From Octopus vulgaris (Eukaryota): 64,000 bases of DNA. The stretch spans positions 56,730,001 through 56,794,000 of the forward strand of contig OX597830.1 of the NCBI GenBank assembly GCA_951406725.2. The letters are read 5' to 3'. The notes under the pieces were generated by a model that saw only the letters and a program-made list of their open reading frames with translations, had not been told where the DNA came from and ran no database searches. Made by a program: the position numbers and the translations under genes. Below are positions 8,487-59,139 of the stretch, in pieces; the first letter of the stretch is position 1, and every line of letters begins with the position of its first letter.

Positions 8487-8715
8487 GGTGGCGAGCTGGC
8501 AGAAACGTTAGCATGCCGGGCGAAATGCATAACCGTATTTCGTCTGCTGTTATGTTCTGAGTTCAAATTCCACCGAGGTCGACTTTGCCTTTCATCCTTT
8601 TGGGGTCGATAAATTAAGTACCAGTTACGCACTGGGGTCAATGTAATTGATTTAATCCATTTGTCTGTCCTTGTTTGTCCCCTCTATTTTTGGCCCCCTG
8701 TGGGTAATAAAGAAA
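8487..8715 (+). mobile_element. tRNA-derived SINE family 1 (tail type GCCCCYTGTGGGTAATAAAGAAA)
   Basis: GGCGAGCTGGCAGAA A-box-like head, GAGTTCAAATTCC B box; other copies at 1220-1404(-), 56103-56332(-), 60801-61030(+). Confidence 0.85.
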
Positions 8716-31022: not shown

Positions 31023-31150
31023 CTTAGAAGTATTAAACCTTAAACAGTTCAAACGCAACATGAAAAAAAAATTCTTGAGCCTTAGGATTCATAAAGCCAG
31101 TTATCCGGTCTCTATGTTTTATAAGTGACTGAAATCACAACATCTAAGTG

Positions 31151-31210
31151 TATTCTACTGACGAGGCAAAGCATTCCTAAATGCAAAGTCAGAAATCCGG
31201 GATCTAGAAT
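31151..31210 (+). ncRNA. Putative type I hammerhead ribozyme, copy 1
   Basis: ATTCTA-CTGACGA-stem II (GGC..GCATT ccta AATGC..GTC)-a-GAAA-TC cgg GA-TC|TAGAAT; one extra A before GAAA departs from consensus. Confidence 0.62.
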
Positions 31211-31628
31211 TATCCAGTAATTTTTTACTTGTTTTATCTTGTCTCTTTGTCTTTTCTCCATGTTGCTATATGTAAACTTAAGGTGGTTTTAGAGTCGGTT
31301 CATGGCTGCTATTTTCAGCTAGGTGGTATCTCGTAGATACCCTAATTTATAATTTTAATAATTATTACCTTTGAAGGTTATTTTTTCCATGCTGACCACT
31401 TGATAAGTTCGTTGTTTTATTTCAAATTAACGATCTTAGCCTTATTTACATAAATTTAAATTTATTTCGTCACTGTATTTACTGCGGTGATATTTTACCA
31501 TATAGCACATGGAATTAGCGGGCATTTTGAACTAGTCTTGATGCATACATGCATATATATGTATGTATACATTCGTATATGTAAGTATTCGTATGTTGTA
31601 TATATGTATTTATGTTTCTTTCTGAGCG

Positions 31629-31688
31629 TATTCTACTGACGAGGCAAAGCATTTCTAAATGCAAAGTCAGAAATCCGGGATCTAGAAT
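31629..31688 (+). ncRNA. Putative type I hammerhead ribozyme, copy 2
   Basis: Same motif as copy 1; predicted cleavage after the AUC ending at 31682. Confidence 0.62.
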
Positions 31689-31830
31689 TATCCAGTAATT
31701 TTTTACTAGTTTCATCTTGTCTCTTTGTCTTTTCTCCATGTTGCTATATGAAAGCTTAAGGTGGTTTTAGAGTCGGTTCATGGCTGCTATTTTCAGCATG
31801 GTGCTATCTCGTAGATACCCTAATTTATAA

Positions 31831-33975: not shown

Positions 33976-34204
33976 CGCCTTGTGAGTGAATTTGGTAGAC
34001 AGAAACTGAAAGTCAGACATATATATATATATACTAGCATTAAAGACCCGTCGTTGTCGGGTCATATTGCTAGTGCATGTATATATGTGTATATATATGT
34101 GTACATATTACATGTACATCTATATATATACATCTACACATAAAATACAAAATACAAAGTTATATCTTGATATCGCTAGTGATAACAATACTCAAAATAT
34201 ATAA

Positions 34205-34504
34205 CAGACTGGAATTATTAGCCCGTCTCTTGTAATTTCGATCAATTGTAACTTGTCCACCCTCTTGTATAGAAGTGTGGCTACAATCCAGCCTACCTCT
34301 ACTTCTGGTGGGGGGGGGGGGGATGCGTTAAAAATTCTTTTCCGGGACGTCGTACGTCCCAGATATAAATGTAAGTATGTAATATATTTCCACTTTGCAA
34401 GTTCGAGTCGAGTACTCCCTCGTTGACTCGAACCTTGCTTCTATTGTGGCGAATTTACCTTTCATAGTCGCACCAAGACACTTTTCGAAGGTGCTTTCCT
34501 CCAT
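34205..34504 (-). pseudogene. Degenerate fragment of a more distant ORF1 relative
   Basis: MEESTFEKCLGATMKGKFATIEARFES / YLGRTTSRKRIFNA / PPEVEVGWIVATLL align by eye to IEKCL..MK..KYGTVEVR / YKGRRGVRVKIPNI / PPEVKTEWLATAIL. Confidence 0.62.
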
Positions 34505-34508
34505 GTTG

Positions 34509-36434
34509 TTTTATTATTACCCACAAGGGGCGAACATAGATGGGACAATACAATCGGGAAAAATGAATAATGAATTATGAAGTTTGTACAATGTGGTGTA
34601 ATGCCCACTCGATCCCCGAAATCGAGCGGTTACATTTCGTCATTTGTTTTTTATTCGTCAACAATATTTTCCAAATAAAAACATTTTACACATTTTCAAC
34701 ATACATTTCAAAAATTTTACAAAGTTCAACATTTTTTTTTCAGAATTTAAAGTTCTTTTTATCATTTCCAATTTAAAGTTTTCACAATACCTTTTCTTTT
34801 ATATATACTCCATTATCTCTACCAAATCTTGGTAAATTTCCATCGTTCGTGGCCATCTTGTAAGTCGGCATTTCATATATTTTGTCACGTTCTTGCCAGC
34901 TGCCTCGATGAACGCCTCAGCGTCGTTCTCGTGGACGAGTGCACCTGTTTCTTTCCATTCGGTGCCCATCCTGACCCACGTATATCCATTTGTTACGTTT
35001 ATTAAATCTTCCATCTCCTCACAGTGCCTGTGATGGATCAACGTTCCATAGTATTTGAATTTTCTATTCGTACCTACGTTTTCTCTAGTTTTTCTCTTAG
35101 GACTTACTTCCTCTTTTTTCTCCTCCCTCGGTTTCTCTCTTTCTCTCTTTTTGCTTTCTCTTCTTTCTTTTTCCTTCTCTTGTCTTTTTGGCTCTTTGTC
35201 TGCCGTCTCTCTACCCTGTGCCTTAAGTTCCTTTCCTGTTGTTTCTTTTCCTTTTTGCATACCATCTTTTCCTTTCTCTTGGTTCTGTTCCTTCTCTTGT
35301 TCTTTTCCTGCTTTTTCTCTTTCCTTTAATGTACTTTCCTTTTCTTTCTCTTGCTTCTGCCTTGGCTTCTTCTCCACTACTTCTGCACCCTGTGAATGTT
35401 GCTCCTTTTCTACTATCTTCTTCCCTTTGTTTTCATTTTCCTTCAGTGCGCTGTTACTTCCCTTCTCTTGTTGTTTCTCCGTTATTTCCTTTTCCTTGTT
35501 TTCGCTGTTCTTTCCTTCGTGTTCGTTTTCCTTCTCTCCACTTTGTGTCTCTTTTTTGCTCCGCTGTGAATTCACACAGCGGACATTCCTTTTTTATGTG
35601 CCCTCTTGTTCCGCACTGGTAGCAATTCGGTTTTCTGCCCTCCACTATTACACTAATTGTTTTCTCGTTTTCTATTTCTATTTGGAAGGGAAATCTTTCG
35701 ATGTCTTCCATTGTGGCCATCAGCCACAACTCTACTCCGAATCCCTTCCAATTTACAACGTTCGTCTCCTTGATTGACCCTATTTCTACTTCCTCCTTTG
35801 CTGCCCCAATAATGGCTGTTACCAGCATTTCTGTTTTAATATCTGGGGGCACCTTTGGGACTCTTACCCGTACCCCTCGTCTTCCTTTATACGTCGGCCA
35901 CATGGTGAAATTTTCGGCTTTCAGGACAGTGGAAGCCAATGAGACCGCCACTTCCTTTGTTGCGCATCTCACCTCCACCGTCCCATATTTCTTTCCTCTG
36001 TCTACAAAAGTCGCTTTTTTCATGATGTCCCCAGACATTTCTCTATTTCTTCAATCGTCACTCTCACCAGTTTTCTCGTGTTTCTATCTTGCGTTCTATA
36101 CGTTATCGTCTTGTTATTTCTCTCCTCTATTGTTTCAACAGGCGGGACCAGCTTCACGCTGTCACCCTCCCTTTTGACGAACTTCTCGTATTCCTTCAAT
36201 TGTTCTTTTCTAAAGAACACTTCTTTTATTCTAAGAGACTCGTCACTTTTTGTTGTGGCGACCCCCGCGTAAGTCTCCATGACTTTAGGGTCGACACACC
36301 TTCTATAAAAGGTTCAAACACGCAGCGGCAAACGCCTCGCGCGATTCAATTTTTGACAATTTTTAACAGTTTTTTTTCAAATTTTCACATACAAAATAAC
36401 TCAATACACACGTGGATTGCGTTCCGCCATGTGA
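34509..36434 (-). mobile_element. ORF1-only non-LTR-like retroelement, unit A
   Basis: 5' TCACATGGCGGAA, structured leader, ORF, 3' UTR hairpin, tail GCCCCTTGTGGGTAATAATAAAA. Confidence 0.75.
34799..36280 (-). pseudogene. ORF1/Gag-like ORF of unit A with two frameshifts
   Basis: ORF pieces 36020-36280, 35454-36038 and 34799-35575 are colinear with the 476-aa ORF; shifts fall near homopolymer runs (~36030, ~35550), so they could be assembly errors. Confidence 0.85.
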
Positions 36435-38365
36435 TTTTATTATTACCCACAAGGGGCGAACGTAGAGGGGGACAGTACAATCGGGGGAAAAAAATAAAAA
36501 TAATGAAATATGAAAATATGTATAAATGTGGTGTAATGCTCCACCCGATCCTCGAAATCAGGCAGTTACATTTCGTCATTTTATAATGTTTTCAACAGTA
36601 ACAAATTCATTTTTCAGCATTTTGCAATACATTTCAATACATTTCAAAATATAATTTCAAAATACATTATCAATTACAGAAAAATTGTTTTCACAAATTC
36701 ACATATAAATCTTTCGCAATACATCTTTAAGGTTTCAAAATACATAACCAAAAGTCTTTCCAAATTTTCTCCTTTTTTTTTTTTTTTTTTTCTTTAATTT
36801 TAAATTATCTCCATTACCTTTTTTAGGTCATTATAGTTTTCCATTTCTTTTGGGTACCTTAGTAGTCGGCACTTCATTTGTCTTGTTACATTCGTTCCAG
36901 CGGCTTTGATAAACGCCTCGGCGTTGTCTTCATGGATCAGTGCACCCGTTTCCTTCCACTCCGTGCCCATCCTGACCCATGAATATCCTTCCGTTTCGCT
37001 TATAAGTTCTTCCATTTCGCCACAGTGTTTATATTGTACCAATGTTCCGTAAAATTTGTATCTTCTATTTGACCCTATGTTTTCTTTGGTTTTCCTCTTC
37101 GGGCTTACTTCTTCTTTACTTCCCTCTCTCGGTTTTTCTCTTTCTCTCTTTTTGCTTTCCTTTTCTTTTTCCTTCTCTTGTCTTTTTGGTTCTTTGTCTG
37201 TCGTATGTTCTTTTCCTGTTTTTTCTTTTTGTGTAGTAGCCTTTCCTTTCTCTTGGTTCTGTTCCTTCTCTTGTTTTTTTCCTGTTTTTTCACTTTCCTT
37301 TATTTTACTTTCTTTTTCTTTCTCTATTACCTGTGACTTTTGTTCTTTTTCTATTAATTCCTTCTCTTTGCCTTCATTTTCCTTCTGTGTATTGTTATTT
37401 CCTTTTACCGTTGTTTCCTTTTCCTTGCTTTCTTTCTCCTTTAGAGTATTGTTCCTTTCTTCGGGTTCTTTTTCTTTCTCTTTTCTGTTTTCCTCTGCTC
37501 TTTCACACTCCGCCACAAATTCGTAAAGCGGACATTCTTTTTTAATATGACCTCTTGTCCCACATAGATAACAGTTGGGCTTCCTCCCCTCAACTATTAC
37601 GCAGAGGGGTCTACCATCTTCTACTTCTATTTGGAAGGGAATTCGGTCTATATCTCTGTTTGTGGCTGTCAGCCACATCTCTATTCCGAATCCCTTCCAT
37701 TTCACTATGCTGGTCTCTTTTATCGATCCAATTTCTATACCTTCTTCTGCTGATCCTAGGATGGCTGTTACCAGCCATTCTGTTTTTAAATCTGGGGTTA
37801 TGTTTGGGATTTTAACCCGCACCCCTCTTTTCCCCTTGTAGGTAGGCCACATGACGAAGTTTTCGCCTCTGAGTACGGTGGTAGCTAGTGAGGCCGCAAC
37901 TTCTTTTGTTGCGTACCTCACCTCCACCGTACCATATTTTCTGCCTCTGCATACAAAGGTAGCCTTTTTCATAACGTCGTCCAGACATTTTTCTATGTCT
38001 TCTATCGCTATTCTCGATAGCTTTCTTGTGGTCGTGTCCTGTGTCCTATAGATTATAGTTTTGTCCTCTTTTTCCTCCTTTGCTTCAACAGGGGGGACCA
38101 GCTTCACTCTGTCATCCTCCCTTTCAATGAATTTCTCAAATTCCTCAAGCTGTTCTTTTTTAAAGAACACCTCTCTTACTGTCAGCGGCGTATCGCTTTT
38201 CATTGCGGCAACCCCCGCGTAAGTCTCCATGACTTGAGGGTCGGCACACTTTCTACAAAAAGTTTCTAACGCGCAGCGGCAAATGCCTCGCGCGATTCAA
38301 ATTTCAATTTCTATCTACAAAACTATCAATTACTTAACACACGCAAATTGATTTCCGCCGTGTGA
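36435..38365 (-). mobile_element. ORF1-only non-LTR-like retroelement, unit B
   Basis: Same layout; 5' TCACACGGCGGAA; tail directly abuts the 5' end of unit A. Confidence 0.78.
36800..38230 (-). CDS. Intact 476-aa ORF1/Gag-like nucleic-acid-binding protein (CCHC zinc knuckle, K/E-rich linker) of unit B
   Basis: Open ORF; CYLCGTRGHIKKEC = CX2CX4HX4C; preceding VRVKIPNI..P..W segment resembles non-LTR ORF1 RRM-like region; no RT follows before the 3' tail. Confidence 0.88.
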   Translation of the reverse strand: METYAGVAAMKSDTPLTVREVFFKKEQLEEFEKFIEREDDRVKLVPPVEAKEEKEDKTIIYRTQDTTTRKLSRIAIEDIEKCLDDVMKKATFVCRGRKYGTVEVRYATKEVAASLATTVLRGENFVMWPTYKGKRGVRVKIPNITPDLKTEWLVTAILGSAEEGIEIGSIKETSIVKWKGFGIEMWLTATNRDIDRIPFQIEVEDGRPLCVIVEGRKPNCYLCGTRGHIKKECPLYEFVAECERAEENRKEKEKEPEERNNTLKEKESKEKETTVKGNNNTQKENEGKEKELIEKEQKSQVIEKEKESKIKESEKTGKKQEKEQNQEKGKATTQKEKTGKEHTTDKEPKRQEKEKEKESKKREREKPREGSKEEVSPKRKTKENIGSNRRYKFYGTLVQYKHCGEMEELISETEGYSWVRMGTEWKETGALIHEDNAEAFIKAAGTNVTRQMKCRLLRYPKEMENYNDLKKVMEII

Positions 38366-40151
38366 TTTTATTATTACCCACAAGGGGCGAACATAGAGGG
38401 GACAATACAATCGGGGAACTTAAAATAAGAAAGCGAATGACAAGAAAAGGAAAAAATAAAAGTAAAAAATGACATATGAAAAGAATATTTACAATGAGAT
38501 GTAAATGCCCACTCGATCCCCGGAATCGAGAGGTTACATTTTCGTCACATATAGTTCACAATATTTTCTTTTTTCTCTTCTTTCTTCTCTCTCTTCTCAC
38601 AATTCTATACGTATTCCATAATAGTTTTCAATTCTCTAAAGTCAATCACTGAGCCCTCAGGCAGCCGCTCTCTCACTCGAACACTCGTGTAAAACGTTAC
38701 ACTCTCTCCGGCAGCTCTGAGGAACTCAGCGACTCTTTCTTCGGGGATTAGAGCAGTCTCCTGCCACTGATCGGTCATCCTGTTGACCCATATATGTCCC
38801 TCCGTACTACTTGTCAATTCTTTCATTTCAGGGCAGAAATGGAAGGTTATTAACTTGTAGAAGCCGTGATCTTGTTTCCGTCCTACGTTTTCCCTCGTTT
38901 TTCTTTTCGGGCTTATTTCTTCCTTGTTCTCCTCTCTTTGTTTCTCTCTTTCTCTCTTTTTGCCTTCTTTTCTTTCCTCTTCCTTCTCTTGTCTTTTTGG
39001 TTCTTTGTCTGTTCTATCTTTCTCTCGTGTTTTATGTTCCTTTTCTTTTTCTTTTTGTGTGCCGTCTTTTCTTTTCGTTTGGTTCTGATCTCTCTCTTGT
39101 TTTTTTTCCTGTTGTTTCTTTTTCCTTTTTTTTTTCCTGACTCTGTTTTGGTTCTATTTCTTTCTTTTCTTTTATTTCTTTTTCCTTCATTGACTTATTA
39201 TTTCCTTTCTCTTGTTGTTTTGTTTCCTTTTCTATGTTTTCTTTTTCATTTACCGTATTCTTCTTTTCGAGCTCCTGCTCACACTCCGCTACGAATTCGT
39301 ATAACGGGCACTCTTTTTTAATGTGCCCCCTTGTCCCGCACAAGTAGCAGTTTGGCTTTCTTCCCTCTACAATTACACTGAGGGTTTTCTCGTCTTCGAT
39401 TTCTATTCTATAGGGGAACCTTTCAATGTCCTCTTTTGTGGCCATCAAACACAGTTCTACCCCATATCCTCTCCAATTTATCTGCGTTGGACTCCTTAAA
39501 GGATTCCACCTCCACTTCCTCTTCTGCTGCTCCTAGAATAGCTGTTGCCAGCCATTCTGTTTTTACTTCTGGGGGTATATTCGGGATTTTAACCCGGACC
39601 CCTCTTCTTCCCTTGTATGAGGGCCACATTATAAATGTTTCCGCTCTTAGAACAGTGGTAGCCAGTGAGGCTGCAATTTCTTCCGTTGCACATCTCACCT
39701 CCACCGTACCAAATTTTTTCCTCTACTCACGTAGGTCGATTTATCCATTATGTCTCCCAGACATTTTTCGATCTCTGCTATCTCCACTCTTGCCAGTTTC
39801 TTTGTACTTTTGTCCTGGGTTCTATACGTTACAGTTTTGTTTTCTTTGTCCTCTTTTGCTTTCGCGGGGGGATTAGCTTCACGCTATCACCCTCCCTTTT
39901 GAATAGCTTTTCATATTCTTTGATTTTACTTTTCTCAAAGAAAACATCCTTCACGATTATCGACGAATCATTATTTTTCTTTCCCGTGACCCCCGCGTAA
40001 GTCGCCATGACTAGAGGGTCAATTCACCTTCTTCGGAAGGTTTCCACACGTGGAGGCAAACGCCTCGCGCGATATTAATCACTTTACACAACAAAATTTC
40101 AACTTCTAATCACAGATAACAACACACGTGGGTAAATTTCCGCCGTGTGTG
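38366..40151 (-). mobile_element. ORF1-only non-LTR-like retroelement, unit C
   Basis: Same layout; 5' CACACACGGCGGAA; tail directly abuts the 5' end of unit B. Confidence 0.75.
38605..40008 (-). pseudogene. ORF1/Gag-like ORF of unit C, frameshifted
   Basis: ATG at 40008 (MATYAGV...); pieces 39423-39704, 39032-39448 (CYLCGTRGHIKKEC) and 38605-38826 are homologous to unit B. Confidence 0.85.
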
Positions 40152-40826
40152 AAAATCTGCTGTTTTCTCTACATTGTATACTTTATAGACAATAGTATTT
40201 TCTTTGATTTACTTTTATCCATCTGGACTATTACATTTCTGCACGCAAATTTATTTTTTAATTTATTCGCATTCATGTGAAACCACTTATTCAAGTTCAA
40301 GTCATTGATGCAATTTTATACCAATTACTATTTTTACTTTTTTTAAAGTTACGATTATATTATACTTTTTAATTATTTTAATTATTACTTACTACATATA
40401 ATTCAATAGTTATTATTATTTTTATTGTTAAAGTGAAAGTATCTGACATATAATAGAGAAATGTTTTTGTTTCACTTTTAACACGTAATACTGAAATAGT
40501 GGCGAAGATATGATATTGCTATGGGCTCGCTCTAGGCAAGAAGGTGAACATTTCTTTTGCCCATGAAACTACATGTGTAAAATTTGAATGAAAATTGATT
40601 GTGTAGTTCTCAAGTTTTAGGGAATCGTAGTGGAGAAGATATGATATAGCTGCGGGCTCGCCCTAGGCAAAAGGTTAAAAATATTTTTGTCGACGACACT
40701 CCCCGGACCCTGAGTAAGGCGTGTGTAAAATTTGAATGAAATTGGTTGTGTAGTTCTCAAGTATTAGGGAAACACACAGACAGACAGACATTCTCAGTTT
40801 TATATATATAAAGATATATATAAAGA

Positions 40827-43800
40827 TATCAAAGAGGGTGCCGAAAGAGATGAAAGAAGAGTCCCGAAAGAGATCAAAGAGGAGTCCCGAAAGAGATCAA
40901 AGAAGAGTCCCGAAAGAGATCAAAGAGGGTGTCGAAAGAGATCAAAGAGGGTGCCGAAAGAGATCAAAGAGGAGTCCCGAACGAGATCAAAGAAGGTGCC
41001 GAAAGAGATCAAAAAGGGTGCCGAAAGAGATCAAAGAGGGTGCCGAAAGAGATCAAAGAGGAGTCCCGAGCGAGACCAAAGAGGGTGCCGAAAGACATCA
41101 AAGAGGGTGCCGAAAAAGATCAAAGAGGGTGCAGAAAAAGATCAGAGAGGGTGCCGAAAATGATCAAAGCTTGTGCCGAAAGAGATCGAAGATGGTGCCA
41201 AAAGAGATCAAAGAGGAGTCCCGAACGAGATCAAAGAGGGTACCGAAAGAGATCAAAGAGGGTGCCGAAAGAGATCAAAGAGGGTGCCGAAAAAGATCAA
41301 AGAGGGTGCCGAAAGAGATCAACGAGGTGTCCCGAAGGAGATCAAACCGGTTCAAACCCGATCAAACCGGATCAAACCGGATCAAACCGGTTCAAACGGG
41401 ATCAAACCGTTTCAAACTGGATCAAGCCTGATCAAACCGGTTCAAATATCAGGAAAGTCTGGAATGTAAGGAATGTCTGGAATGTCAGGAATGTCAGGAA
41501 TGTCTGGAATGTCAGGAATGGAAGGAATGTCAGGAATGTCTGGAATGTCAGGAATGTCTGGAATGTCAGGAATGTAAGGAATGTTTGGAATGTCAGGAAT
41601 ATCAGGAATGTCAGGAATGTCTGGAATGTTTGGAATGTTTGGAATGTCAGGAATGTCTGGAATGTCTGGAATGTCAGGAATGTAAGGAATGTCAGGAATG
41701 TCTGGAATGTGAGGAATGTTTGGAATGTGAGGAATGTTTGGAATGTCAGGAATGTCAGGAATGTGAGGAATGTCAGAGATCAAAGATGGTGCCGACAGAG
41801 ATCAAAGACGGTGCCGATAGAGATCAAGGTGTGTGCCGACAAAGATCAAATACGGTCCCGACAAACCGGTTCAAACCGGATCAAACCGGTTCAGACCGGA
41901 TAAAACCGGATCAAACCGGTTGAAACCGGATCAAAACGGTTCAAACTGGATCAAGCCTGACCAAACCGGTTCAAATGTCAGGAATGTCAGGGATGTCTGG
42001 AATGTCTGGAATGTCAGGAAAGTCAGGAATGTCAGGAATGTCAGGAATGTCTGGAATGTCAGGAATGTCTGGAATGTCAGGAATGTCAGGAATGTCAGGA
42101 ATGTCAGAGATCAAAGATGGTGCCGACAGAGATCAAAGACGGTGCCGATAGAGATCAAGGAGTGTGCCGACAAAGATCAAATACGGTGCCGACAAACCGG
42201 TTCAAACCGGATCAAACAAGTTCAAACCGGATCAAACCGGATCAAACCGGTTGAATCCGGATCAAACCGGTTCAAATCGGATCAAACCGTTTCAAACCGG
42301 ATCAAAACGGTTCAAACTGGATCAAGCCTGATGAAACCGGTTCAAATGTCAGGGATGTCTGAAATGTCTGGAATGTCAGGAAAGTCCAGAATGTCAGGAA
42401 TGTCAGATCGTGCCGACAAAGAAAGACGGTGCCGACAAAGATCAAATACGGTGCCGACAAACCGGTTCAAACCGGATCAAACCGGTTCAAACCGGATCAA
42501 ACCGGTTCAAACCGGATAAAACCGGATCAAACCGGTTGAAACCGGATCAAACCGGTTCAAATCGGATCAAACCGGTTCAAACCGGATCAAAACGGTTCAA
42601 ACTGGATCAAGAATGATCAAACCGGTTCAAATGTCAGGAATGTCAGGGATGTCTGGAATGTCTGGAATGTCAGGAAAGTCAGGAATGTCAGGAATGTCTG
42701 GAATGTCAGGAATGTCTGGAATGTCTGGAATGTCAGGAATGTCTGGAATGTCAGGAATGTCTGGAATGTCTGGAATGTCAGGAATGTCTGGAATATCTGG
42801 AATGTCAGGAATGTCAGGAATGTCAGGAATGTCAGGAATGTCAGGAATGTCTGGAATGTCAGGAATGTTTGGAATGTGAGGAATGTCAGAGATTAAAGAT
42901 GGTGCCGACAGAGATCAAAGACGGTGCCGATAGAGATCAAGGAGTGTGCCGACAAAGATCAAATACGGTGCCCACAAACCTGTTCAAACCGGATCAAACC
43001 GTTTCAAACCGGATAAAACCGGATCAAACCGGTGGAAACCGGATCAAAACGGTTCAAACTGGATCATGCCTGATCAAACCGGTCCAAATGTCAGGAATGT
43101 CAGGGATGTCTGGAATGTCTGGAATGTCAGGAAAGTCAGGAATGTCAGGAATGTCTGGAATGTCAGGAATGTAAGGAATATTTGGAATGTCAGGAATGTC
43201 AGGAATGTCTGGAATGATGGAATGTCAGGAATGTCTGGAATGTAAGGAATGTCAGGAATGTGAGGAATGTGAGATCAAAGATGGTGCCGACAGAGATCAA
43301 AGACGGTGCCGACAGAGATCAAGGATTGTGCTGACAAAGATCAAATACGGTGCCGACAAACCGGTTCAAACCGGATCAAACCGGTTCAAACCGGATCAAA
43401 CCGGATCAAACCGGATTAAAACTGTTCAAACTGGATCAAGCCTGATCAAACCGGTTCAAATGTCAGGAATGTCAGGGATGTCTGGAATGTCTGGAATGTT
43501 AGGAAAGTCAGGAATGTCTGGAATGTAAGGAATGTCAGGAATGTGAGGAATGTGAGATCAAAGATGGTGCCGACAGAGATCAAAGACGGTGCCGACAGAG
43601 ATCAAGGATTGTGCTGACAAAGATCAAATACGGTGCCGACAAACCGGTTCAAACCGGATCAAACCGGTTCAAACCGGATCAAACCGGATCAAACCGGATT
43701 AAAACTGTTCAAACTGGATCAAGCCTGATCAAACCGGTTCAAATGTCAGGAATGTCAGGGATGTCTGGAATGTCTGGAATGTTAGGAAAGTCAGGAATGT

Positions 43801-45140
43801 CTGGAATGTCAGGAATGTTAGGAATGTTTGGAATGTCAGGAATGTCTGGAATGTCTGGAATGTCTGGAATGTCAGGAATGTCTGGAATGTCAGGAATGTC
43901 AGGAATGTGAGGAATGTTAGAGATCGAAGATGGTGCCGACAGAGATCAAAGACGGTGCCGATAGAGATCAAGGAGTGTGCCGACAAAGATAAAATACGGT
44001 GCCGACAAACCGGTTCAAACCGGATAAAACCGGATCAAACCGGTTGAAACCGGATCAAAACGGTTCAAACTGGATCAAGCCTGATCAAACCGGTTCAAAC
44101 GTCAGGAATGTCAGGGATGTCTGGAATGTCTGGAATGTCAGGAAAGTCAGGAATGTCAGGAATGTCAGGAATGTCTGGAATGTCAGGAATACCTGGAATG
44201 TCTGCAATGTCAGGAATGTAAGGAATGTTTTGAATGTCAGGAATGTTAGGAATGTCTGGAATGTCTTGAATGTCACGAATGTCAGGAATGTCTGGAATGT
44301 CAGGAATGTCAGGAATGTCAGGAATGTCAGGAATGTCAGGAATGTCTGGAATGTCAGGAATGTCAGGAATGTCTGGAATGTCAGGAATGTCAGGAATGTG
44401 AGGAATGTCAGAGATCAAAGATGGTGCCGACAGAGATCAAAGACGGTGCCGATAGAGATCAAGGAGTGTACCGACAAAGATCAAATACGGTGCCGACAAA
44501 CCGGTTCAAACCGGATCAAACCGGTTCAAACCGGTTCAAACCGGATCAAACCGGTTGAAACCGGATCAAACCGGTTGAAACCGGATCAAAACGGTGCAAA
44601 CTGGATCAAGCCTGAATGTCAGGAATGTCTGGAATGTCAGGAATACCTGGAATGTCTGGAATGTCAGGAATGTCAGGAATGTAAGGAATGTTTTGAATGT
44701 CAGGAATGTTAGGAATGTCTGGAATGTCTTGAATGTCACGAATGTCAGGAATGTCAGGGATGTCTGGAATGTCTGGAATGTCAGGAAAGTCAGGAATGTC
44801 AGGAATGTCTGGAATGTCAGGAATGTCTGGAATGTAAAAGGAATGTCAGGAATGTCTGGAATGTCTGGAATGTCAGGAATGTTTGGAATGTCTGGAATGT
44901 CAGGTATGTCAGGAATGTCTGGAATGTCAGGAATGTTTGGAATGTGAGGAATGTCAGAGATCAAAGACGGTGCCGAAAGTGATTAAAGAGTGTGCCGACA
45001 GAGATCAAAAAGTGTGCCGACAAAAATCAAAGACAGTGCCGAGAGAGATCAAAGACGGTGCCGATAGAGATCAAGGAGTGTGCCGACAAAGATCAAATAT
45101 GGTGCCGACAAACCGGTTCAAACCAGATCAAACCGGTTTT
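40827..45140. repeat. Complex higher-order satellite (22/23-bp, 10-bp and 9-bp subunits)
   Basis: AAAGAGATCAAAGAGGGTGCCG blocks, AAACCGG(A/T)TC blocks and GGAATGTC(A/T) blocks cycling in fixed order. Confidence 0.95.
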
Positions 45141-52305: not shown

Positions 52306-53637
52306 TTGGGTTGGCAACTAAGTTGCCACCGGTTTTTTAAATTTAAATTTTTTAAAAGGTTTAATAAAAATTAACAACTAATTAATTAATAATGTATTCA
52401 CCCTTGTTGTTTACAACTTCTTCCCAACGTTCAACAAAATTTTCAATACCTCGTTGGTAGAAATCACCCGATTTCGACTCGAAAAATGATCCAACCAAAC
52501 TCTCAATTCTGCATCAGTATTGAGCAAAACTCCGCGCATAGCATTTGAAAGAGATTGAAAGAGGTGGAAATCCGTTGGTGCCAAATCAGGAGAGTACAGC
52601 GGGTGTGGCAGAACTTTCCAGCCATGTGCTTGAATGGCTTCCTTGGTCATATTGGCGATATGAGGGCGGGCGTCGTCGTGCAGCAGAAAAACTCCATGCT
52701 GCCGATTAGATCTTTTCTCTTGAATAGCCGTGTTGAGGTAGTTCCATTTGTTGAACATAGAGTTTCGCGTTGACCGTTTGGTTCCGATCAAGCAATTCGT
52801 AATGGATAATCAGTTCCCAGTCCCACCATAAGCACAACATCGTTTAACGCGGATGAAGATCTTGTTTCACGCGCGGTGTCGCCTGTTTACTTGGTCTAAG
52901 CCATTCCTTACACTGCTTCATATTGATGTACAGGCACCATTTTTCGTCGCCAGTAACGATTCGGTAAAGAAATCGTTGCTTGTGTCCATGAGTTGAGCGG
53001 TGACGAGCAAGCAAACCAGCGGAGATTGTGAGTCGTTGACTTTTGTTGTTGTCACTTAAAGCATGCAGAACCCATGCTCCATACTTCTGAACCTTTCCCA
53101 TCGAGTGAAGATGCTTCTCTATTACAGTGTGGGAGCACTCCCTTGTCGTTTGACGAGAATTTTCGTGCAAAAGTTGGTTTAATCGCTCTTCATCGAACTC
53201 AACTGGAAGGCCAGAACGAGGTGCGTCTTTGAGATCAAAATTTCCATTTTTGAACTTGGCATACCAATCACGAGCGATTCTTTCAACTATGGCACCCTCT
53301 CTACACACAGCACAAATGTCGCGAGCGGCTTTTGCGATCTTAGAACCTTAATTAAAAGCAAAAGGTGGTGTCGAAAATGCTCGTTTTTCTTAACTTGTCT
53401 TAACTTGACATTCCATTTTATTGATCTGATAATAAACAAAAATTAACTAAAATTAAGTAGGAAAACAAAAGAGAAAAAAACTAACAAAAAAACAAACAAA
53501 CAAACAAAATAGATTCCAAAATGATTCAAAAATAGAATTCTCGAAAAAAATAGATTCCAAAATTTAAAAACGCAATAAATTCCAAAATAATAATAATAAT
53601 AATAAAAAAAACGGCGGGAACTTAGTTGCCAACCCAA
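52306..53637 (-). mobile_element. Full-length mariner DNA transposon, inactive transposase
   Basis: TIRs TTGGGTTGGCAACTAAGTT / AACTTAGTTGCCAACCCAA with TA on both sides; 1332 bp; motifs WVLHAL, TGDEKW, HDDARPH, YSPDLAPTD; stop and frameshifts present. Confidence 0.95.
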
Positions 53638-56102: not shown

Positions 56103-56332
56103 TTTCTTTACTACCCACAAGGGGCTAAACCCAGAGAGGACAAACAAGGACAGACAAACGGATTAAGTCGATTACATCGACCCCAGTGTGTAACTGGAAC
56201 TTATTTAATTGACCCCGAAAGGATGAAAGGCAAAGTCGACCTCGGTGGAATTTGAACTCAGAACGTAGCAGCAGACAAAATACTGCTAAGCATTTTGCCC
56301 AGCATACTAATATCTCTGCCAGCTCGCTGCCT
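56103..56332 (-). mobile_element. SINE family 1, full-length copy
   Basis: Reverse complement of the 8487-8715 type. Confidence 0.85.
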
Positions 56333-58574: not shown

Positions 58575-59139
58575 AGAAGGTAACAGTGATGGAGTAGGTG
58601 GTGTGGGAATATTTCTTGAAAAGAAATGGGTGGATAAGATCATAGAGGTAGTCTGAGTGTGCGATAGAACACTTAAGCTCAGGCAAGTCTTACAGAATAG
58701 CATAGCTACAATTATCTCTGCCTATGCCCCACAAGCAGGCCTGCCAAATGAACAGAAGGACCACATTTACTACATTCTTCTGCTGGCTACTTTAAAGATG
58801 AGGGACAATGGTTTTGTCTTCGTGGTTGGGGATTTCAATGGGCATGTCAAATGGCACCCTATTATCTACTATGCTGTATTCGGGGGCTGTGGAACTGATG
58901 TCCAAAACGAAGAGGGAACAAGGCTACTGGAGTTCTGTAATGCAAATGACTTACTGATCTGTAACACCAACTTCAGGAAGCCAGCCAACCACCTGATCAC
59001 TTATCAATCAGATGATTTTATTAGCCAGATTGATTTCATTCTCACCAGACAGTATGATGCATGGTTGCTCTTGAATACAAGGACCCTTGGAGATCAGCAC
59101 GACCTGCTGATCTCTAACTATGGAGGGAACCTGTGGTAG
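58575..59139 (+). mobile_element. RTE-type LINE AP-endonuclease fragment
   Basis: GVGGVGI, SAYAPQ, VGDFNGHV, NEEGTRLLEFC, TNFRK, SQIDFIL motifs; in-frame stop upstream. Confidence 0.9.

Follow-up and report, generated by a model that had tools for sequence, protein, structure and literature searches.

Three ORF1-only retrotransposons, here called C, B and A, were found at a single site of a Helitron-like host element in the genome of Octopus vulgaris, with copies of that site between them. They were likely inserted one by one by the endonuclease and reverse transcriptase of a 5.26-kb L1/Tx1-type LINE, with which they have both tail and site in common. The array lies in a 64,000-nucleotide stretch of contig OX597830.1 (positions 56,730,001 to 56,794,000), which is referred to as the window and to which all coordinates below belong. 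The motif that recurs at the array junctions, ACAYGGMGGAA, is the insertion site within a non-autonomous Helitron-like element of about 1.1 kb, and the final motif in the array is the host site itself.

Organisation of the array and its junctions

The window contains one host copy, running from 40814 to 34034 and opened at ACATGGAGGAAAGCAC. Read along the minus strand, the array and its host consist of the following parts.

34034..40814, minus strand: Helitron-like, non-autonomous host, interrupted by the array; its 5' TC follows an A (40814) and its 3' CTAG precedes a T (34034)
40149..40814, minus strand: 5' part of the host, 88% identical to one empty copy
40182..40187, minus strand: TATAAA, with the insertion point 39 nt further downstream in both host variants; putative promoter element
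40133..40148, minus strand: leader of unit C, 16 nt, the first 13 nt being those of the leader of B
38364..40148, minus strand: unit C, ORF1-only element; frameshifted ORF1 from the ATG at 40008 to about 38605; tail end AAAATC
38348..38363, minus strand: leader of unit B, 16 nt
36433..38363, minus strand: unit B, ORF1-only element; closest copy (96.2%) in the other host variant (variant 2)
36800..38230, minus strand: intact ORF1 of B, 476 aa, with a zinc knuckle (zf-CCHC)
36417..36432, minus strand: leader of unit A, 16 nt
34507..36432, minus strand: unit A, ORF1-only element; frameshifted ORF1 36280-34799; tail end AAAACA
34491..34506, minus strand: original host target ACATGGAGGAAAGCAC
34216..34504, minus strand: decayed ORF1-like fragment, part of host variant 1 and absent from variant 2
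34200..34215, minus strand: ATTCCAGTCTGTTATA, the landing site of host variant 2, unused in the window
34034..34075, minus strand: 3' hairpin and CTAG end of the host (hairpin z -6.25)

The three units encode only a zinc-knuckle ORF1, which is intact in B and frameshifted in A and C. Unit C was 97.9% identical to a copy in another array, and the duplication forming its leader would have arisen on insertion of C in front of B. Exact tails were located on the minus strand at 38388-38366, 36457-36435 and 34531-34509, followed by TC+ACACGGCGGAA (38363-38353), TC+ACATGGCGGAA (36432-36422) and CA+ACATGGAGGAA (34506-34496), respectively. The two nucleotides after AAAA (TC or CA) are part of the tail of the upstream unit and not of the motif. 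A fourth exact ACAYGGMGGAA, which the earlier note on this DNA did not list, opens unit C at 40148-40138. When one mismatch is allowed, the motif has nine matches in the window against 2.8 expected, a number that none of 100 shuffles reached; the four exact ones among them all lie at these junctions.

Genome-wide, the 22-nt tail occurs in 258 copies. In 88 of these it is directly followed by two nucleotides and the exact ACAYGGMGGAA, and N10+GAA follows it in 112 copies. In the comparison with SINE copies that the earlier note had suggested as a control, NN+ACMYGGMGG followed none of 324 SINE-type tails across the genome. The claim that each tail is followed by the same motif was borne out at the window junctions, and the 3' flanks collected genome-wide were non-random. 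Among 110 exact tails inspected, mostly on contigs 1-11 and with one counted twice owing to overlapping loci, 53 abutted the main host site, seven the second host site, 32 the next element and 18 other sequence. Arrays without a helper are under-represented in this tail-based sample, because most C tails and all Z tails differ. With 60 of the 110 tails directly abutting the host, the family exceeds the level at which Kojima recognizes a target preference, namely more than 20% of flanks in one repeat (PMC4494074).

Two SINE tails in the window (8693-8715, plus strand; 56103-56125, minus strand) are nearly identical to the family tail. The SINE tails resembling it have AT-rich, unrelated flanks genome-wide, and those SINEs probably have a related LINE of different target preference as their partner. 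At four loci (L081, L125, L174 and L183) the insertion consists of no more than the terminal 25-30 nt of the tail, flanked by full duplications of 16-17 nt. The host element is located at the edge of a complex satellite (40822-45108) built from units of 22, 9 and 10 nt, with 283 and 331 nt as its higher-order periods, and a direct duplication of about 200 nt occupies approximately 31150-31350 and 31630-31830. Further fragments resemble a mariner transposase (52844-53347, minus strand) and the endonuclease of another LINE (58657-59139, plus strand).

A Helitron-like element provides the insertion site

Non-autonomous Helitrons begin with TC, end with a hairpin and CTRR, and are inserted between A and T. 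The 5' TC, the 3' hairpin with CTRR and the A/T flanks were present in most of the 15 variant-1 and 12 variant-2 empty copies. The sequence following tail A occurs 361 times in the genome, and of the first 30 such loci, 19 were empty, the sequence being preceded there by what lies upstream of unit C and not by a tail. Exact empty junctions numbered at least 327 for host variant 1 and 124 for variant 2, with empty copies of 0.8-1.4 kb and 0.7-1.2 kb, respectively. Variant 2 is without the ORF1-like fragment and receives insertions at ATTCCAGTCT, a point equally distant from the upstream sequence common to both variants.

The earlier note had read the stretch after tail A as a decayed relative of ORF1. 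In agreement with this, the stretch starts with ATG and is frameshifted, and a tblastn comparison of the family ORF1s with this stretch in eight empty host copies gave a best E value of 8e-10. The host target site is located at the start of this decayed relative (34504-34216, minus strand; missing from variant 2), which is related to the very family that targets it.

The helper LINE and the ORF1-only families

Most of the tails belong to the helper X, the 5.26-kb element, which has both ORF1 and ORF2. Its ORF2 (1131 aa) contains Exo_endo_phos (APE endonuclease), RVT_1 (reverse transcriptase) and zf-RVT domains, with LINE-1 ORF2p as the best PDB match (E 7e-65). Judged by its sequence, X is an L1/Tx1-type non-LTR retrotransposon; the features it has in common with the L1/Tx1 group are an ORF1 preceding ORF2, a C-terminal zinc domain, a fixed 3' end, 5' truncations and target-site duplications. 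The helper endonuclease supposed in the earlier note thus has a candidate bearer in this LINE with APE and reverse transcriptase domains. No named animal Tx1 reference was present among the 35 homologues or the atlas matches, and the homologue names gave no clade placement. By length cut-offs, among 41 full-length helpers both ORFs were intact in one, ORF2 in 15 and ORF1 in three. The endonucleases of the helper subfamilies X1 and X2 differ in few residues. A third, more distant subfamily (about 81% DNA identity) lies beside variant-2 arrays at L043 and L114.

Units A, B and C are 69-75% identical to one another, and their nearest copies in other arrays or on other contigs are 96-98% identical. 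Their ORF1s align with that of X at 36-39% identity (E 1e-33 or better), and the ORF1s of A, B, C and two further families, termed Z, are 28-39% identical to that of the helper and to each other across groups. A dN/dS of 0.08-0.13 among A, B and C, computed on the N-terminal part with a single copy from each family, indicates purifying selection on their ORF1. With a helper-homologous ORF1, no ORF2 and a common tail, A, B and C are classified as ORF1-only non-autonomous LINEs on sequence grounds. The insertion site is common to X and to families A, B, C and Z, with 16-nt duplications, and from the common tail, site and duplications we infer that A, B and C would be mobilised in trans by the helper. 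The two Z families (L042, L046, L083, L099, L146) are likewise ORF1-only and have a SINE-like tail variant, AATAAAGAAA; Z units are nearly always 5' in the arrays, and their insertion points are either the 5' UTRs of Z elements or more upstream parts of the host.

Leaders and the choice of the landing point

Full-length copies at foreign sites start with a local duplication, followed by 4-8 bases from upstream of the host site and then by the motif. Such host bases and leader were observed at L153-155 (one event), L147 and L101, and also at L187, where the partner duplication falls outside the fetched stretch. Because these copies bring host bases and motif to foreign sites, the element RNA would carry its target. 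The L153-L155 loci represent one foreign-site insertion of A found three times on one contig, with later whole-locus duplications. In 17 pairs of adjoining units from different families, two pairs being those of the window, leader positions 1-11 departed from the host site in 16 cases; in 15 of these the unit upstream had the change as well, against 7.5 expected by permutation (p 0.002). New copies therefore do land in the leader of a resident copy. In L107, the sequence flanking a truncated C is the variant carried by the unit downstream of it and not that of the host. The proposal of the earlier note that the helper endonuclease targets a motif at the element's own 5' end therefore holds in part: the elements carry the motif and new copies land there, but the primary target is a separate, Helitron-like host site of which the motif is a duplication, and recognition of ACAYGGMGGAA by the endonuclease is not supported, as the motif beyond C|AYNY is not conserved at off-target sites and a host variant with other downstream sequence is hit at the equivalent position.

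The consensus of 15 foreign sites with a duplication is only C|AYNY, with C at -1 in 13, A at +1 in 14 and a pyrimidine at each of +2 and +4 in all 15; no motif conservation was detected beyond +4 at these sites. The second host site, that of variant 2, is unrelated after +4, yet it is used at the equal position, 39 nt from TATAAA. Because nothing beyond C|AYNY is retained off target and variant 2 differs downstream, ACAYGGMGGAA is probably not the main determinant of insertion, and the position relative to the upstream host sequence likely outweighs the GGMGGAA part. The X1 tails lead into ACA- sites and the X2 tails into ATTC- sites and also the main site, and the first target bases appear to be partly helper-specific.

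An endonuclease that itself read the 11-nt ACAYGGMGGAA, with every copy of the motif a target and growth at any junction, would account for the variant-1 motif after 55 of 66 X1-type tails, with the variant-2 site after none, and for the remaining flanks, which start with ACA in eight of 11 X1 cases and often with ATTC in X2-type cases. Very young helpers adjoining the host site, with older-looking units upstream, also fit such insertion at the 3' junction. This explanation is nevertheless unlikely, given the lack of conservation past +4 at the foreign sites, the insertion of C at L181, where the host position was the usual one but an unrelated Z leader followed it, sister copies of B and A in both host variants and the many changes tolerated in leaders.

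A TATAAA 39 nt upstream of the site would place the beginning of transcription near -9, in keeping with the host bases found on the foreign-site copies. TATA-like sequences were in weak excess at foreign sites (six of 15 against a background of 15.5%, p 0.02, the search interval having been picked after the host had been seen). We tentatively consider that the landing point of the LINE might be set by the core promoter, 39 nt behind the TATA box and about 9 nt after the transcription start, in combination with only a 5-base nick preference. The LINE and several ORF1-only dependants might in that case capture the Helitron promoter, include the landing site in their transcripts and line up behind the promoter.

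Probable growth of arrays by serial insertion

The 49 arrays displayed 30 different orders of units, and the CBA order occurred once. Near-identical helpers are present in hosts that are 4-9% apart, with Z, C, X or nothing upstream, and the distances of helper and host were uncorrelated (Mantel r -0.04, n 47). Truncated copies lie between 16-nt duplications, in L119 and array a2 at the host site and in a13, L081, L176 and L178 at foreign ones. Single units were found to be A-to-G hyper-edited next to unedited neighbours: C in L087 (39 of 39 private changes), X in L147 (28 of 33) and Z in L099 (21 of 24). These changes are clustered on the sense strand and look as if derived from RNA editing prior to reverse transcription; their strand-specific excess in single units points to an RNA intermediate and fits unit-wise copying. 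The 30 orders, the mismatch of helper and host and the single-unit editing argue for serial insertion, as the earlier note had supposed, and against a fixed trimer.

The Z, C, X order is far more regular than predicted by independent insertion. This regularity, together with the truncated C units that adjoin deleted 5' host parts before full helpers (a11, a14) and the few neighbour pairs that are close in both units, would be expected if arrays moved mainly as multi-unit read-through RNAs, made from the host promoter and reverse transcribed from the last tail into empty hosts, with few donors built serially. We regard this as quite improbable in view of the number of orders, of the editing limited to single units (though local editing on a long RNA is possible) and of helpers that showed no congruence with the unit upstream of them (r 0.06 with n 11 for C and r 0.05 with n 9 for Z, both of low power). 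Some arrays recur nearly whole (L140/L159 and a14/L143), and some units may travel together. The L140 and L159 loci hold one rearranged array on two contigs, with a later whole-locus duplication.

Local tandem duplication of one unit, and a fixed trimer carried as Helitron cargo, have hardly any probability left and are already refuted for the window: near-identical C runs with one leader (a2, a3) may include unequal crossing-over, and the array does lie between Helitron ends, but A, B and C are 69-75% identical mutually versus 96-98% to copies on other contigs, the CBA order is unique among the 49 arrays, and helper and host are uncorrelated.

As for the direction of serial insertion, the 5' unit was not consistently the youngest: private changes were fewer in the upstream unit in 25 pairs, fewer in the downstream unit in 46 and tied in 24 (31, 51 and 14 without A>G; 8, 13 and 13 for same-family pairs only), a dating confounded by the family sample sizes (76 X, 6 B). 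In the window, B has 39 private changes and A, downstream of it, has 8, which makes B look the older of the two. Junction variants point to growth at the 5' end, but divergence does not, and the terminal (3') junction may also be reused.

Proposed mechanism and comparison with known systems

Under the favoured reading, one-by-one insertion by the helper at the host site, the bottom strand would be nicked at C|A and the top strand cut about 16 nt downstream, with target-primed reverse transcription starting from the common tail. Transcription, probably driven by the TATA box of the host, would begin some 9 nt before the site, and the RNA would carry a copy of the target. The cDNA end would then anneal to the cut target, making the leader part local duplication and part donor sequence. 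The junction beside the host 5' part would stay usable, and later copies would enter the leader of the resident.

HeT-A is telomeric and forms head-to-tail arrays with autonomous partners, HAL1 is not known to be site-specific, and Zepp is known for self-insertion. HAL1, HeT-A and Ag-Sponge are described as ORF1-only LINE derivatives that kept ORF1 and the 3' end and have no ORF2, and such derivatives are listed for the L1, Jockey and CR1 clades (PMC5786205). The octopus A, B and C similarly keep ORF1 and the 3' end without ORF2.

In Drosophila, the copies of R1 tandem arrays are separated by duplicated target, and new copies have been inferred to enter the duplication on the 5' side of one already present; RNAs of melanogaster-type R1 carry upstream target bases, which are visible at off-target insertions and anneal to the target (PMC2718515). 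Duplicated target between copies, insertion into leaders and carried upstream bases are all found in octopus. Unlike R1, an autonomous element of the R1 clade with a 28S rDNA target and a 14-nt duplication, the octopus array is located in a transposon host and combines an L1/Tx1-type helper with several ORF1-only families. For R2 with upstream self-cleavage, target sequence on the 5' end of the RNA has been proposed to anneal and give uniform 5' junctions (PMC3774820); R2 has a ribozyme-made 5' end, a restriction-like endonuclease and an rDNA target.

Tx1-Mar and SINEU are inserted in Mariner-N4_AMi, and Tx1L in Tx1D; tandem copies in these systems sandwich a 16-nt duplication, and 5' extensions are host-derived (PMC4494074). 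In both this system and the octopus one, a LINE and its non-autonomous partners occupy a common site in a non-autonomous DNA transposon. The Tx1-Mar/SINEU partners are non-coding and their preference is looser, whereas the octopus partners encode ORF1; the hosts of Tx1-Mar/SINEU and Tx1L are Mariner, piggyBac, Harbinger or LTR elements (PMC4494074), whereas the octopus host is Helitron-like. The word 'helitron' has no occurrence in the text of that article. Papers on octopus repeats name L1-Tx1 and Helitron families and, in their accessible text, draw no link between them (PMC13282606, PMC8967140). No Helitron-targeting LINE was found described in the open-access articles searched.

What is new is the type of host, a rolling-circle element, and the number of coding dependants; the mechanism is close to known cases, and stacking has already been described for R1 and SINEU. 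The array adds a rolling-circle element to the known hosts of site-specific LINEs, and one common site is seen to serve several dependants that are old and encode protein. With its two host variants, its copies in the hundreds, some empty and some filled, and its two or three helper subfamilies, whose endonucleases differ little, the system constitutes a natural experiment on target choice by APE LINEs, which could separate the contributions of downstream sequence, upstream sequence, RNA-DNA pairing and promoter-bound factors.
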